Positions 40,704 through 46,234 of a DNA stretch of 64,000 nucleotides are shown here, one piece after another. Under the pieces are notes generated by a model, which saw only the letters and a program-made list of their open reading frames with translations, did not search any database and was not told where the DNA came from. A program made the position numbers and the translations under genes. The stretch spans positions 38,935 to 102,934 of the forward strand of contig CAWIIV010000022.1 of the NCBI GenBank assembly GCA_963836205.1. The letters are read 5' to 3'. Source of the stretch: an uncultured Acidimicrobiia bacterium (GTDB lineage Bacteria > Actinomycetota > Acidimicrobiia > Acidimicrobiales > AC-14). How positions within the stretch are numbered: position 1 is the first letter of the stretch; each line of letters begins with the position of its first letter.

Positions 40704-41307
40704 ATGATCGATCTCGATGCGACGGCGGCGTTCATCGCCAGGCTCGAGGGAGCGGGTGGACGCGCGTCTCTACCGCGACGCGGTCGGGGTCGAGACCATC
40801 GGCGACGGCGAGACCCGGCGGGACGTCATCGAGCGCTACCGCCAGAGCGGGATCTCCCAGGCCGAGGCGATGAACCTCCTGAAGCGACGGGTGAGGAGTT
40901 CGCCGAGGCCGTCGAGGATTGCGTCACGAACCGCGACCGCCCTGACGCCCAACCGCCATGCCGCCCTCACGAGCCTTGCCTACAACGTCGGCGTCGGCGG
41001 GTTCTGCGAGTCGACCGCCCGCAAACGCCTCAATGCCGGGGACGTCGGCGGCGTTCCGGAGGCGTTGGCTGGTGGAACAAGGGGGCGGGCGGATCCTGGA
41101 GGGGCTCTCGCGCCGGCGGGCGGCGGAGTCCGCGCTGTTCGAACGCGACTTCGACCTGTCCCCGGCCGGTCCGACAGGACGGTGGCCAGGAGTGAGTCCA
41201 ACCTCATGCGGGAGGGGGATCGGGGGGACAGGGTGCGCGAGGCCCAGCGACGTCTGGCCGAGCAGGGCTGCGCGGTGGCGGCCGACGGCGCTTTCGGGCG
41301 CGTAACC
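40704..41307 (+). pseudogene. GH24 (phage-type) lysozyme plus start of PG-binding domain; frameshifted and IS-interrupted (5' part)
   Basis: FIARLEG...LYRDAVGVETIG, AALTSLAYNVG, LEGLSRRRAAESALF, then LMREGDRGDRVREAQRRL...ADGAFGRVT. Confidence 0.8.
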
Positions 41308-41417
41308 GGCTCTCCGCGTTGGAGTGGGGAGACGAGGTAGCGGGGTATCCACCACAGGGGCCAGGGGCCCCGTCATCGTTGCGGCTTCTCGACGGCTGCA
41401 GCGATGGGAGACCCCTG

Positions 41418-42379
41418 GTGGCGAACGACGGTATCGGGCTGGCGGAGGCACTCCTCGGACTGGACGGGTTCCGGGTGCTGGCCGTGGCCGAAGGGCCTGC
41501 GGAACTGGTCGTCACCGTCGAGACGGTGGTGACCCAGGTCGGCTGCGGGAGCTGCGGCGTGCGGGCCGAGGCCCAGGATCGGATGTCGGTCGACGTCCGC
41601 GATCTGGCCTGCTTCGGACGGCCGGCACGCCTGGTGTGGAACAAGCGCCGGTGGCGCTGCATGGAGGCCGACTGCGAGGCCAAGACGTGGACCGAGCACT
41701 CCGACCACGTCGACACCCAGGCCGTGCTGACCCGACGGGCCGGGGCCGAGGCGTGCCGCCAGGTCGGCGCCGACGCCCGGCCGGTGGCGGCGGTGGCGGC
41801 CGAGCTCGGGGTGTGCTGGTGGACGGTCATGAACGCCGTGATCGAGCACGGGACTCCTCTCGTCGACGACCCCGACCGCATCGGCACCGTCACCCAGTTG
41901 GGAGTCGACGAGACCTCGTTCCTGACCGCCAACCGGACCCACGCCACCATCTACGCCACCGGCCTGGTCGACCTCAAGGCCAAGGTCATCATCGACATGG
42001 TCGAGGGCAACACCGCCGCTGACCTGCGGCGATGGACGGCCAAGACCGATCCCGCGTGGCTGAAGTCGATCACCGTGGTGGCCACCGACCTGGCCGAGTC
42101 CTTCCGGGCGGGCCTGTCGCCCGGGCTCGATCACGCCGTTCGGGTGGCCGATCCCTTCCACGTCGTGCGAGTCGGCAACCGCTGCCTGGACAAGGTCCGG
42201 CGCCGGGTCCAGAACGAGACCCTGGACCACCGGGGACGCAAGGACGACCCCCTCTACCGCATCCGCAAACTGCTCCTCACCGGCGGCGAACGCCTGGACG
42301 AGAGCGGCAACGCCCGCATGCTGCTGGGGCTGCGGGCGGGCGATCCCAAGGACGAGGTGCTGGGCGCCTGGCTGGCCAA
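41418..42379 (+). pseudogene. ISL3 transposase, 5' part
   Basis: CGSCG zinc finger, KRRWRC, LGVDET, VATD, DPFHVV; cut at ...WLA. Confidence 0.92.
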
Positions 42380-42401
42380 TTAACCGGCCCTCGGGTCTCT
42401 G

Positions 42402-44363
42402 TCAACAGGAAGCTTCCTGGGATGGTTGGCTCGACAACCGCCGAAGGTGCCGCTCGATGCTGTCGATGACGCGCTGGTGACGAGCGGCCTCGGATGTCCA
42501 GCCACGGTCGTCAGCATCCTTGCGAAGCTGTCGGACGTCGCCTAGCTGGGCCTCCAGCGCAGCCGCGAAGTCCGGGGTCGTGACGAAGTTGGGACAGGTC
42601 TCGCAGATGTTGGCGTAGGCACAGGCCTCGGCCGCCAGCTCTCGGGAGCAGTAGCCGTGGGCCACGCGTGTCTTGAGCATCTCCGACGCCAACCATTCGA
42701 CGTGATCGGGGACGGCTGGGCGTCCCGCCGGCGCCAGCGGGATGCGCCTGGCGATCCTGCCGACGGCCTGGTCATAGGCGGCCTTGAGCGTCGGTGAGGC
42801 GAGACGGGCATAGCGGGTGGTCATCTCCGCGCTGCGGTGGCCGAGCAGGGTCATGAGGGCCTGCATCGACATGCCGGCGTTGGCCAGCTCGGTGGCCCAG
42901 GTGTGCCGCAGTTGGTGGGCGACGACGCGCAGCGGCTGACCATCGGGACCGGTGAGACCAGCACGTGCAGTTGCGTTGCTCAGGCCCTGGCGGATCCGGG
43001 TCTCGCCGAGGCGACGGCCGCGCTCGATGAACATGAAGTCGGCCAGGTGGCCATCCCGGGGGTGCACCTGGGCTCGCTGACCGGTCCGGTGTGCCAGCCA
43101 CTCCTCCAGGGCCGCGAGCGCCACGTCGTCGACGGGAACCGAGCGCTCGTTGTGGAGCTTGCCGACGGGGACCCGGAGCCATGTTCCGCCGCTCCGGTAA
43201 TCGACCAGATGGTTGAGTTCGAGATCGAGCAGCTCGCCGATGCGCAGTCCGGTGTGACGCAGCACCGTGATCCCGACCCGGGCGAAGCGGTCCTCGAGCT
43301 CGGCCGCCGCCGCCATGAGCGCGCCGTCGACGTCGGGCGCCAGCGCCCGGGGCAGCGAGTCGGGCTGGCGAGGGATGTCGGTGGCGAAGACCAGCCGCCG
43401 GCCAGGCGCCTCGGTCCACCCCCAGGCGCTGATGTCGTCCAGGAACCCGCGCAGGGTGATTGCGGCATGGGCGGGGACGTGAGGGCCGACCTGCCGGCTC
43501 GTGTCGTGGCTGCCCCGACAGTTGCGGGTGGCGGTCCAGGCGAGGAAGCCTTCGACGTGGGCGCGCTCCAGCGCCCGCAGGGAGCGAACGTCGCCATGGT
43601 GCTCGCTCAGGTACTCCCCGAAGATGGCCAGGGCGCTGGTCAGCTTCTCGATGGTCTTGGGTCGGAGCACCGTGGCCCGGACGTCCAGATAGGCCAGCAG
43701 GGTCCGTCGGATCTCCGGTGCGGCCACCGCCGCCAGTCGCCCCTGGCGAGTGGCGGGGCCGCCCTCCCGTCGATGCTGGGCTGGAAGTTCGACCGTGCCG
43801 GCTTCGAACAGCAGCCGGCGCAGTCCGAACAGTCGGCTCCGCCGGCGCCGACGCATCGACTCGCTCAACCGGACGGTGGCGGCCACTGCGTCGCCCAACC
43901 CATCGAGATCGTCGCAGGTCAACGACGCCGGTGGGTGGCCGGAGAAGGCCACGGCCAGGGGCAGGTCCTCGCTCAGCAGCTGCGGCAGCGCCGCAACGCC
44001 GACGCGCTCGCCGACCGCCCGCAGGCGAGCGACGTCGTCAGCGAACAGTCCCGCCGTCCAGCGCGCCATGCTGTGGCCGAAGTTCTTGGCGAACAAGAAC
44101 TCGGCGTCGGCGCGGACCCACCCCGAGAGCATGGCGAAGGCGACAAGGGGCCAGGTCAACGGCCGACGGCGCAGCTCGACCAGTCGCTCGTCGACAGAGC
44201 CCGCCATCCATTCGTCGAGTCGGGGGTGATCCCGCAGGAAGTCGGCGGCGGCCGCTATCTGCTGGCGCCGATAGGCGGGTTGGCCTCCGAGCAGGGCGAC
44301 ATGCTCGGCATAGTCGCTCTGCAGACCAGGCGATGGCGACGAGAGGGCGGCCAACGTGGTCAT
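42402..44363 (-). CDS. Large tyrosine recombinase (TnpB-like, 653 aa)
   Basis: TGLRIGE, GK..ER, HQLRHT, LLGHRSAEMTTRY; C-terminal GYC...C...C..C. Confidence 0.9.
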   Translation of the reverse strand: MTTLAALSSPSPGLQSDYAEHVALLGGQPAYRRQQIAAAADFLRDHPRLDEWMAGSVDERLVELRRRPLTWPLVAFAMLSGWVRADAEFLFAKNFGHSMARWTAGLFADDVARLRAVGERVGVAALPQLLSEDLPLAVAFSGHPPASLTCDDLDGLGDAVAATVRLSESMRRRRRSRLFGLRRLLFEAGTVELPAQHRREGGPATRQGRLAAVAAPEIRRTLLAYLDVRATVLRPKTIEKLTSALAIFGEYLSEHHGDVRSLRALERAHVEGFLAWTATRNCRGSHDTSRQVGPHVPAHAAITLRGFLDDISAWGWTEAPGRRLVFATDIPRQPDSLPRALAPDVDGALMAAAAELEDRFARVGITVLRHTGLRIGELLDLELNHLVDYRSGGTWLRVPVGKLHNERSVPVDDVALAALEEWLAHRTGQRAQVHPRDGHLADFMFIERGRRLGETRIRQGLSNATARAGLTGPDGQPLRVVAHQLRHTWATELANAGMSMQALMTLLGHRSAEMTTRYARLASPTLKAAYDQAVGRIARRIPLAPAGRPAVPDHVEWLASEMLKTRVAHGYCSRELAAEACAYANICETCPNFVTTPDFAAALEAQLGDVRQLRKDADDRGWTSEAARHQRVIDSIERHLRRLSSQPSQEASC

Positions 44364-45405
44364 CGCCCCGTCACCGCCCGGGCGGCCGCGAACTCGGCTG
44401 CGAGGGTGTCGGCCGACAGGTGCACGTAGCGGGCCGTGGTCTCCGGGGACGCATGGCCCATCAGCTCGCGCAGCGCCAACAGGTCGATCCCGGCGGCGGC
44501 GAGCTCGGTGCCATAGGTGTGGCGGAGCCGATGAGGGCGCACCCTCGTCGCTCCCGATCGCGCCCGGTGGGTGCGGAAGACCTTGCGCAGTCCCGCCTCG
44601 GTCAACGGCCCGCCCCGGGTCGGTCCTCGAAGGACGACGAAGCACTCGGGACTGCGGCAGCCCGGCGGCCGCTCGGAACGCACGTAGGCGGCGCACTCGG
44701 CGAAGAAGACGCCGTCGACCGGCACGATCCGCTCCTTGCCGCCCTTGCCCACAACTCGGACACGGCGCAGCCCCATGTCGACGTCGGCCAACCGCAGCGA
44801 GCGGACCTCGCGGCGCGAAGTCCGCCCAACACCATGGCCAGCACCATGGCGCGGTCCCGATGGGTCTCGAGGTCGGCCAGGAAGGCCGTCACATCCTCGG
44901 CCGCCACGCTCTCCGGGAGTCGCTGCGGCTCACGCACCAACCGGCCGCCCGATCTCGACCGGGTGGCGACGTGGCCCAACGAGCCGCGATGCTGGCCCCT
45001 CAGCCCGCTGGCCCGCCGCGCCGATGGAACGGGGTTGGCAACCCGATCGCCGGTGGTCACGAGATGTTCGAACAGTCCCCGGACCGCTGCAATCCGCCGG
45101 TTCAGAGTCGCTGGTGCCGGCGTCGACGGGGCGATCGCCACGACCTTGCCGGCCGTTCCCGATCGACGACTCTGCCAGTCCAGGTAGCCGAACAGGTCTG
45201 TGGGCACGACCTCGGCGAGCTCGATGCCCGTGGCATCGAGGAACGTGGCGAAGTTCGCCAGATCGAACGCGTAAGAGCGAACCGTCGCCGGAGAGAACCC
45301 GCGGACCTGAAGGTGGCGCAAGAACCCGTTGGCCGCTTCGATCACCGGCCCCTCGCCGTCGAGGCGATGTCCATTCGGCGCACCGACAACGCGAACTCTC
45401 GTCAT
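44360..45405 (-). CDS. Tyrosine recombinase (TnpA-like), one apparent frameshift
   Basis: SPATVRSYAFDL, GGLRA|EV (frame break at about 44810), GKGGKER, HRLRHTY, LMGHASPETTARY; GGAGG RBS. Confidence 0.85.
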
Positions 45406-45496
45406 GGCCGTCCTCCCTCGTCGCGAGTATCCGGCCCCGCTCCGCCCTACTGGTGGATGCCCTTCGCCACCGTGACTGAAGGCCGGTTAACAGACA

Positions 45497-45845
45497 GGAG
45501 TCCGTGCGCGACGTCTACCTCACCGCCGATGCCGCGGTCGCGGCCACCCTTCTCGACAAGGCCATCGCCGGCTGCATCGGTGACGAGGTGGAGGAGATCC
45601 GGTCCCTCGGCCACACCCTCAAATCGTGGCGGACCGAGATCCTGGCCCACCACGACACGGGCGCCTCGAACGGTCCTACCGAGGGCCTGAGCTTGTGCGT
45701 GAAGCGGGTCAAGCGCTGCGGCCATGGCTTCAAGAAGTTCGAGAACTACCGCCTGCGGGTGCTACTCCATGCCGGCGGTGTCAGCTGGCCGTCGAAGCCG
45801 CGGCCGCCGCGCATCCGGACCCGCGCTCCCCACTCAGACGCGTAG
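45497..45845 (+). pseudogene. ISL3 transposase, 3' part
   Basis: TLKSWRTEIL, SNGPTEG, GFKKFENYRLRVLL. Confidence 0.9.
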
Positions 45846-45857
45846 GGCCGCGTAACC

Positions 45858-46234
45858 GCCGACGCGGTGAGGGCCTTCCAGAGGCGAAATGGCCTGGAAG
45901 CCGACGGCGTCCTCGGCCCCGCAACGTGGCAGATCCTGTGTCGATGCCCGCGGCACCCCCGCGGCCGGAGACCCCGTCGTCCCCCACGTGGCGCGGCCGT
46001 TTCATGCAGCAAGGCGTGGACGGCGACGACGTCCGCCAGGCCAGCGCCCTGGCCGAGCGAGGCTGGAGCATCGTCATCGAGGGTCTTTTCGGCCCGAAGA
46101 CGAACGCAACGGTCTGTTCGTACCAGAGTGAGAAGGCCCTCGTCGTCGATGGCGTCATCGGCCCCGTGACCTGGCAGGCACTCTGGTCCACCCCCATCAC
46201 CGGCGGCGGCACGACGCCCGCTGGCCCGCCTTAG
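45858..46234 (+). pseudogene. 3' part of the lysozyme gene: peptidoglycan-binding domains
   Basis: ADAVRAFQRRNGLEADGVLGPATW continues directly from ...FGRVT; second domain ...FGPKT...VDGVIGPVTW. Confidence 0.82.

Follow-up and report, generated by a model that had tools for sequence, protein, structure and literature searches.

A TnpC-less, cargo-free relative of Tn554 in Actinomycetota that appears to home to fixed codons of insertion sequence transposase genes

In a 64,000-nt stretch of DNA from an uncultured Acidimicrobiia bacterium (the whole stretch analysed is hereafter called the window), we identified a 3117-bp element that is inserted in the transposase gene of an ISL3-family insertion sequence (IS) and encodes two tyrosine recombinases, TnpA and TnpB. 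Our interpretation, to which we assign a probability of about 0.7, is that this element is a minimal, cargo-free and TnpC-less relative of the transposon Tn554, and that it belongs to a large Actinomycetota family whose members home to fixed codons of DDE transposase genes and would pass through a circle in which the joined ends form a promoter. Genomes and loci are designated below by G and L numbers, respectively, G000 being the genome that contains the window.

The borders of the element could be read directly from its target. Intact ISL3 copies with frames of 462-463 aa, from the same-genus genomes G006 and G001, provide seven relatives of the interrupted gene, and six of these fit the site pattern, all reading ...TGGCCAA^GGA(G/A)TC... 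(^ marks a junction here and below) and encoding WLAKESVRD. Four of the six (L136, L137, L154 and L155) share about 86-91% nucleotide identity with the ISL3 halves of the window and two (L139 and L140) are more distant; the seventh intact locus, L141, does not match the site pattern. A preliminary description of the stretch, made from its sequence, had held that the ends can be read to within one base and that deleting the element restores WLAKESVRDVY, and both statements are borne out by the six copies that read uninterrupted through the site. In L136, the 5' half of the window gene stops at subject base 1499 and the 3' half begins at 1498; the halves thus abut, the insert occupies exactly 42380..45496 (complementary strand), and the target was, as already described, not duplicated and also lost nothing. 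On the forward strand, the junctions read GCCAA^TTAACCGGCCCTCGG at 42379/42380 and CTGAAGGCCGGTTAA-CAGACA^GGAGTCC at 45496/45497, with the repeat cores GCCAA^TTAACCGGCC... on the left and ...GGCCGGTTAA-CAGACA^GGAGTCC on the right, and the border ambiguity amounts to one A.

All parts of the element lie on the complementary strand: a 6-bp sequence that we denote N6 (45491..45496; TGTCTG on the element strand, CAGACA on the forward strand), the adjoining tnpA-proximal terminal repeat (45476..45490; TTAACCGGCC... on the element strand), tnpA, tnpB, and the tnpB-distal repeat (42380..42394; ...GGCCGGTTAA on the element strand), which was read directly and from the relatives. The two inverted repeats are perfect over 10 nt (TTAACCGGCC / GGCCGGTTAA) and match at 12 of 15 positions. 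They are outside the 25 longest of 261 repeat pairs and too short to stand out alone, and they gain their weight because they recur at 57 related loci. A second pair of an empty and a filled site (L049 and L050, respectively), with flanks that are 99.9% and 99.6% identical, yields a 3168-bp insert that consists of N6 and the element and nothing more.

The tnpA gene (45405..44360, 348 codons) encodes a short tyrosine recombinase in which the Pfam domain Phage_int_SAM_1 is followed by Phage_integrase, and tnpB (44363..42402) encodes a long tyrosine recombinase of 653 aa with a Phage_integrase domain. The two genes overlap by ATGA, and the non-coding DNA of the element is limited to 113 bp, split between its two ends into 22 bp and 91 bp, in agreement with the original account of two overlapping recombinases and no cargo. 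The core-binding and catalytic region of TnpB contains R374, K402, H483, R486, H509 and Y518, and the C-terminal Cys cluster that had been pointed out earlier was identified as C572, C581, C587 and C590, four residues that are invariant in 49 relatives and align with those of Tn554 TnpB. Relative to the 88%-identical copy in G007, the alignment shows that one base is missing from the window tnpA after 44808, breaking the frame; a 170-nt soil-metagenome contig that is otherwise identical to the window has the extra base (a C), so the frameshift may be an assembly error or a variant and is perhaps not real in all cells. At a dS of about 0.4 between the window and G007, tnpB has a ratio of nonsynonymous to synonymous substitution rates (dN/dS) of 0.157, and the corresponding values of the two tnpA parts are 0.175 and 0.054, which indicates that both recombinase genes are under purifying selection.

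An AlphaFold2 model of TnpB built from 49 sequences (mean predicted local distance difference test score, pLDDT, 78.5) matched Xer recombinases, the Tn1549 integrase, lambda Int and Cre in Foldseek searches through its core-binding and catalytic parts. The N-terminus carries additional core-binding-like helical domains: the first 205 residues, folded separately, gave a helical model (pLDDT 90.5), in which residues 107-200 superimpose in VIA-align on the core-binding domain of XerA (Z 9.2, root-mean-square deviation 2.5, 86 residues) and further on those of IntI, Brujita Int, XerD and lambda Int, and residues 10-94 more weakly on lambda Int (Z 5.2). Recombinase core-binding domains make up 6 of the top 12 structural matches of the N-terminal domain, which on its own had no Foldseek match at E up to 0.001.

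Both recombinases connect the element to Tn554. The window TnpB aligns with TnpB of a Tn554 copy (L132) at E 1e-35 and 24% identity, collinearly over residues 225-644 and 225-629, respectively, including the C-terminal GYC...C..AN.C..C motif, and the intact TnpA of G007 aligns with Tn554 TnpA over its full length (E 1e-29, 26% identity). TnpC of Tn554 and its pBD2 homologue match DUF6262 (PF19776); the best six-frame match to this family in the window's genome scored 12.3 bits against a cut-off of 29, and is on another contig. Together with the two-gene layout of the relatives, these results uphold the classification as an IS-like, TnpC-less relative of Tn554. The window element shares with Tn554, which occurs in Staphylococcus and Enterococcus and encodes TnpA, TnpB and TnpC, a short and a long tyrosine recombinase encoded in the same order by overlapping genes, the lack of target duplication, site-specific target choice and 6 extra bp at one junction. 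It differs in having neither TnpC nor cargo, in ends that are clear inverted repeats, and in its target, which in the window family is an IS transposase gene and in Tn554 the chromosomal att554. In L132, a UPF0758-family gene is located directly upstream of Tn554 tnpA.

The family to which the window element belongs is large. TnpB matches at E up to 1e-30 were found in 14 of the 61 related genomes (counting G000), 318 of the 413 candidate stretches from species-representative genomes encode a relative, and 157 plasmid records of PLSDB contain a match, the close ones being mostly from Rhodococcus and Mycobacterium; according to the record titles, the relatives come from Actinomycetota. The unpublished genomes G008, G017 and G021 were also inspected, and none of the claims made here depends on them. 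The best 80 of the 318 relatives were kept as a locus set. In 57 of these 80, TTA[AT]CCGG is found upstream of tnpA and CCGG[AT]TAA downstream of tnpB, delimiting a unit of 3116-3402 bp; in the remaining 23, one or both end motifs are missing within the available DNA. Two genes only are present in 49 of the 57 complete relatives, and hence the window copy is not a deletion derivative, as it could have been if close homologs, in a scenario that the preliminary description had raised, always carried a third gene.

The other 8 of the 57 (the IS630-targeting clade and L110) contain an additional conserved 77-aa open reading frame (ORF) upstream of tnpA and overlapping it (for example, L092 3336-3569; also L093, L096, L107, L109, L110 and L111), which is 55-57% identical between distant members and corresponds to no Pfam family, DUF6262 included. 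The copy in G040 (L037 6050-6916) has an 866-bp DNA insertion inside tnpB, bringing the unit to about 3985 bp. On plasmid pDK3 (L043 2950-4893), a full-length tnpB relative (51% identity) is accompanied by the family distal repeat beside an IS256-like flank and is preceded, in the place of tnpA, by an 806-aa hypothetical gene.

To determine the targets of the family, open stretches abutting the junctions were translated and scanned against Pfam, and all flanks were then classed by tblastn with ten Pfam-named flank translations. A DDE transposase match is present at most 8 nt from the junction at 50 of the 57 loci, the other 7 having at most 24 nt of flank. These targets are divided among IS256/Transposase_mut (31), ISL3 (12), IS630/DDE_3 (6) and IS66 (1), and represent 45 distinct flank pairs. 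The breaks are at fixed positions of the Pfam profiles: in Transposase_mut, position 337 is the last one covered by 15 left flanks and 336 by 2 others, with 4 right flanks beginning at 339; in DDE_Tnp_ISL3, the break is at about 150/153; and in DDE_3, at 120-121 of 146. Orientation is fixed as well. Insertions in IS256 are co-oriented with the transposase gene in 27 cases, reversed in 3 and hybrid in 1, and the 11 insertions at the ISL3 site of the window (site 1, WLAK^E) all run against the transposase gene. In L113/L114, which is reversed within IS256, the insertion point is displaced by 6 nt, and therefore a 6-bp piece of the target always adjoins the distal end. The insertions in G013, G040 and L130 occupy a second site in ISL3 (VKR^), located 220 bp downstream from that of the window, and the window ISL3 itself serves as the empty site for the G013 insertion.

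In a quick maximum-likelihood tree (IQ-TREE) of 62 TnpB rows, from which L107 (a 475-aa ORF) was left out, target family tracks TnpB clade, with 15 label changes compared to a mean of 31.4 after shuffling, a value as low being reached in 0 of 200 shuffles. The clade of the window comprises 14 TnpB rows, and all 12 of those with readable flanks target ISL3 site 1; moreover, relatives that are 70-79% identical occupy the same codon in ISL3 copies of much lower or no detectable nucleotide similarity. Judging from these insertion patterns, insertion sequences seem to be what this family is specialised to parasitise. Similarity between the target arm and the element arms was loose by eye (about AACC-N3^TCGAGCGG, in the IS256 and IS630 targets), and we make no claim on it. 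L046 and L085 each have flanks that belong to two IS copies and are inverted relative to one another, an arrangement that inversion between two element copies would produce; L076, too, is flanked by parts of two different IS256 copies, one of them inverted, and inversion or deletion between element copies is expected to give such an arrangement.

The 6 bp adjoining the tnpA-proximal repeat travel with the element. In the relatives, N6 is TATCGG, TATCCG, TATCTG, TATGGG, TGTCGG, GATCGG or similar, with the consensus TRTCNG. Four different IS256 copies contain L040, L041, L044 and L097, elements with 99.8-100% identity across about 3168 nt, TATCGG included, whereas the identity of their flanks does not exceed 74-79% or the flanks cannot be aligned; for L040 and L041, which are 100% identical over 3168 nt with flanks at 74-79%, this implies independent hops. 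The 6 bp beyond the distal ends of the four (CCGAGC, AGGAGC, TCGAGC and TTGAGC) were never seen as N6. Furthermore, N6 is the same in all 29 element pairs that are at least 96.7% identical, the repeat-only contigs L098, L104 and L121 (and L099, with one extra base) begin with N6 and end in ...TAA, and L053, a 79%-identical element (at the nucleotide level) in another ISL3 copy, has the TGTCTG of the window. Because near-identical elements in different IS256 copies keep N6, and always at the tnpA end, N6 belongs to the element; these comparisons show that it is retained from one hop to the next. The preliminary description had taken CAGACA for a remnant of the previous donor site. This part of it did not hold, given that near-identical elements at four targets share N6, which is the outcome that the description itself had named as speaking against a donor remnant, whereas its reading of a TnpC-less Tn554 relative that causes no duplication stood. 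In L046, target sequence is found in place of N6.

Joining of the two ends would bring together the parts of a candidate promoter. A -35-like hexamer, TTGACA (42400..42405, complementary strand), is located 17 nt from the terminal TAA, overlaps the tnpB stop and faces outward over the distal end. When 50 distinct ends were scored for matches to TTGACA at 4 or more of the 6 positions, such a hexamer preceded the terminal TAA in 48, the distance being 17 nt in 42 of them and 18 nt in the remaining 6, compared to a mean of 1.39 at other offsets. The TAA and the first three bases of N6 form TANNNT across the inferred joint in 48 of 50 cases, and the integrated TAA with its flank does so in 1 of 46; L061 and L070 are the two exceptions, with neither the -35 nor the -10 part. 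TANNNT is the usual actinobacterial form of the -10 element, and in the window N6 would complete the -10 with its first three bases, giving TAATGT as the hexamer across the joint. In the circle-junction promoters of IS911, IS2, IS30 and IS256, a -35 in one end becomes functional once joined to a -10 in or across the other. By this analogy and by the conserved pattern, it is likely that the joined ends build a promoter, TTGACN-17 nt-TAA^TNT, that would drive tnpA-tnpB only from the circle. Junction promoters of the IS911 type belong to elements with DDE transposases, whereas the window element uses tyrosine recombinases; we know of no report of one for a Tn554-type tyrosine-recombinase element, a point on which no dedicated search was made.

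The following sequence of events would accommodate these features. The element would leave its site as a circle, in which the repeats would flank N6 and form a core site similar to lox or dif (arm, 6-bp spacer, arm), and end joining would assemble the promoter and thereby switch the recombinases on in the circle. Integration would be fixed by the exchange of one strand pair and finished by replication, a route already suggested in the case of SE elements, integron cassettes and CTX phage; we favour one-strand exchange with replication because N6 is always at the same end (distal in 0 of 50 loci) and the target has no homology to N6. The N-terminal core-binding-like domains of TnpB are candidates for reading the target, and precise excision would restore the host transposase gene.

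The host of the element is an ISL3-family IS (41308..45849, forward strand; about 1425 bp without the insert), which is recognised by the DDE_Tnp_ISL3, Zn_ribbon_ISL3 and HTH_Tnp_ISL3 domains of its transposase and by its terminal inverted repeats; the target was duplicated over 8 bp, GCGTAACC, and the two copies occupy 41300-41307 and 45850-45857. The 5' part of the transposase gene (41319..42379, forward strand) ends in ...WLAK, with the last codon split as AA^G, and the 3' part (45497..45845, forward strand) continues with ESVRDVY.... The IS in turn interrupts a gene with Phage_lysozyme and PG_binding_1 domains (40717-41307 and 45850-46234), so that the nesting is three deep, from the lysozyme-like gene through ISL3 to the recombinase element. 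The genome that contains the window (25 contigs, 88.6% complete) yielded no further copy of either the element or the host ISL3. The same genome encodes an unrelated long tyrosine recombinase (G000:C12:185608-186441, L032; a 478-aa ORF), 35% identical to TnpB residues 206-505. In G007, an equivalent element is present at 87-88% identity, likewise as a single copy.

Three other explanations bear on how the family integrates and is expressed. Under a model like that of Tn554 or Tn916, a coupling sequence taken from the previous donor site, and replaced at each hop, would make up the 6 bp beside tnpA. The lack of target duplication, the 6 extra bp at one end and the differences in N6 between lineages are all compatible with it, and according to PMC10214605 the new site of Tn554-related and SE elements receives 6 bp copied from the flank of the donor; nevertheless, we regard it as highly improbable, given that TATCGG is common to four near-identical elements whose distal-side 6 bp never appear as N6, that repeat-only contigs start with N6, and that the TRTCNG consensus holds across clades with different targets. 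Ordinary two-strand exchange across a 6-bp non-homologous overlap, as in Tn916 and Tn1549, with mismatch repair or selection leaving N6 at the tnpA end, would require no one-strand pathway dependent on replication. It would agree with the Foldseek result for TnpB, in which one of the best matches (E 1e-8) is the Tn1549 integrase in complex with its circular-intermediate DNA, and the 6-nt shift in L113/L114 fits a 6-bp staggered target core. Unbiased segregation of the heteroduplex, however, predicts a distal N6 in about half of the insertions, and the observed 0 of 50 informative loci makes this route rather unlikely in our estimate; for Tn554 itself, the choice between one- and two-strand exchange is described as unresolved in PMC10214605. 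It is about as doubtful that TTGACN and the T-R-T with which N6 starts serve the recombinases, for binding or cleavage, rather than as a promoter. Both motifs are within or beside recombination sites, where conservation is expected regardless, but the hexamer is present at one end only, keeps its 17-18 nt spacing while the upstream DNA varies, fits the two promoter consensus elements, and is lost together with the -10 T in the only two exceptions.

The remaining alternative concerns the window copy, which could be an inactive passenger that was inserted once, long ago, and has since been moved within a 4.5-kb composite by ISL3 transposase acting in trans. The homology between the window and G007 spans exactly 41308-45849, that is, the ISL3 unit only, in different genomic places with different 8-bp duplications (GCGTAACC in the window, ATAAATAT in G007), each genome has a single copy, and the window tnpA is frameshifted. 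We consider this scenario unlikely, because the recombinase genes show dN/dS of 0.05-0.18 at a dS of about 0.4, the metagenome contig reads tnpA without the frameshift, and the 70-79% identical relatives are at the same codon in ISL3 copies that are much less similar. In addition, dN/dS of the split ISL3 halves, window versus G007, is 0.13 and 0.06, unlike that of a long-dead gene; recent independent insertions or cycles of precise excision would fit these values better.

Several points weigh against our preferred interpretation of a mobile, homing element with a circular stage. Between the window and G007, the element and its flanks diverge alike (87% vs 90%), and the two insertions may be one old event carried by ISL3; with tnpA broken in the assembly and one copy per genome, activity of the window copy is putative. 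No circle or tandem joint was detected in four soil runs (contigs, at most 0.09 of the sampled words). At least 116 metagenome stretches match the arm-N6-arm arrangement, but among the matches listed 0 of 116 encode tnpA or tnpB, in a tblastn set-up whose positive control found tnpB in L092, and these matches are chance palindromes. N6 differs at 2 of 6 positions in five pairs involving L094 (95% identity) and at 1 position between L085 and L089, and N6 does evolve, perhaps more quickly than the remainder of the element. Sequence pattern and analogy underlie the proposed promoter, the proposed exchange of one strand pair and the part suggested for the N-terminal domains of TnpB. Finally, Z scores below about 13 in helical domains can mirror a common arrangement and are not decisive, and the Cys region of the TnpB model is poorly modelled, with low confidence.

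The class of TnpC-less pairs is not new, having been known since 2012. PMC3414803 (Van Houdt et al. 2012) describes actinobacterial Tn554-related pairs of an approximately 350-aa and an abnormally long recombinase, including a TnpC-less class, and the window pair fits this description: its two recombinase genes are adjacent and co-oriented, one product having about 350 aa and the other more than 600 aa, TnpC is lacking and the host is actinobacterial. The pairs of Famint36 and Famint41 treated there are likewise adjacent, co-oriented and devoid of TnpC, and often present in several copies in Actinobacteria; the ends, the 6-bp feature, the target and the promoter, which are described here for the window family, are absent from that text as available. 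A pair on pREL1 listed in the same source (L276 1779-4726), a distant TnpC-less pair, is 33% identical to the window TnpB over residues 214-640 and has other terminal inverted repeats (ATATGTGGGTGATC). Because of this low identity and the different ends, the window family is a sister group at best. The flank of the pREL1 pair showed a weak match (21.8 bits, under the cut-off of 24.1) to the IS3-family orfA domain HTH_Tnp_1, and homing into IS genes may reach beyond the window family.

Among other known systems, SE elements are similar in that, according to PMC10214605, the spacer adjoins one particular end after integration, and one SE was found within an IS3 gene. They have four proteins, cargo and a renewed spacer and occur in Gammaproteobacteria, in contrast to the two proteins, the absence of cargo and the constant spacer of the window family; the four SE core genes intA-tfp-intB-srap have no counterpart set in the window element with its two genes. 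A constant 6 bp also sets the family apart from Tn554-related elements, in which, as the same source reports, it is renewed from the donor flank. RIT elements resemble the window element in being small and cargo-free, with recombinases only and inverted repeats, but have three recombinases of 315-410 aa (PMC10214605), compared to two here, one of 653 aa. In the open literature covered, mostly at the level of titles and abstracts, we found no account of tyrosine-recombinase pairs that home into the transposase genes of IS elements, nor a description of the element anatomy, the constant spacer or the likely junction promoter.

Taken further, the family could be a dedicated hyperparasite of insertion sequences that homes to the most conserved DDE codons, silences the IS, restores the gene upon excision, follows a copy-out/copy-in route with one-strand exchange and is expressed from a circle-only promoter; we put this forward tentatively, as a possibility that we would not yet bet on. 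If true, IS activity would be subject to a reversible switch, and tyrosine recombinases of Gram-positive bacteria would have a mode of working that is new. A family whose only known targets are the catalytic genes of other transposons bears on the competition between mobile elements and on hitch-riding on plasmids. For annotation, the split IS256, ISL3 and IS630 'pseudogenes' beside two 'integrase' genes, which are common in the genomes and plasmids of actinobacteria, can be recognised as one element with exact borders. The constant spacer, fixed orientation and lack of duplication make the family a clean natural system for the question of one- versus two-strand exchange in Tn554-type pairs, and a compact two-protein system with precise insertion at a short defined sequence could become an integration tool for Actinobacteria.

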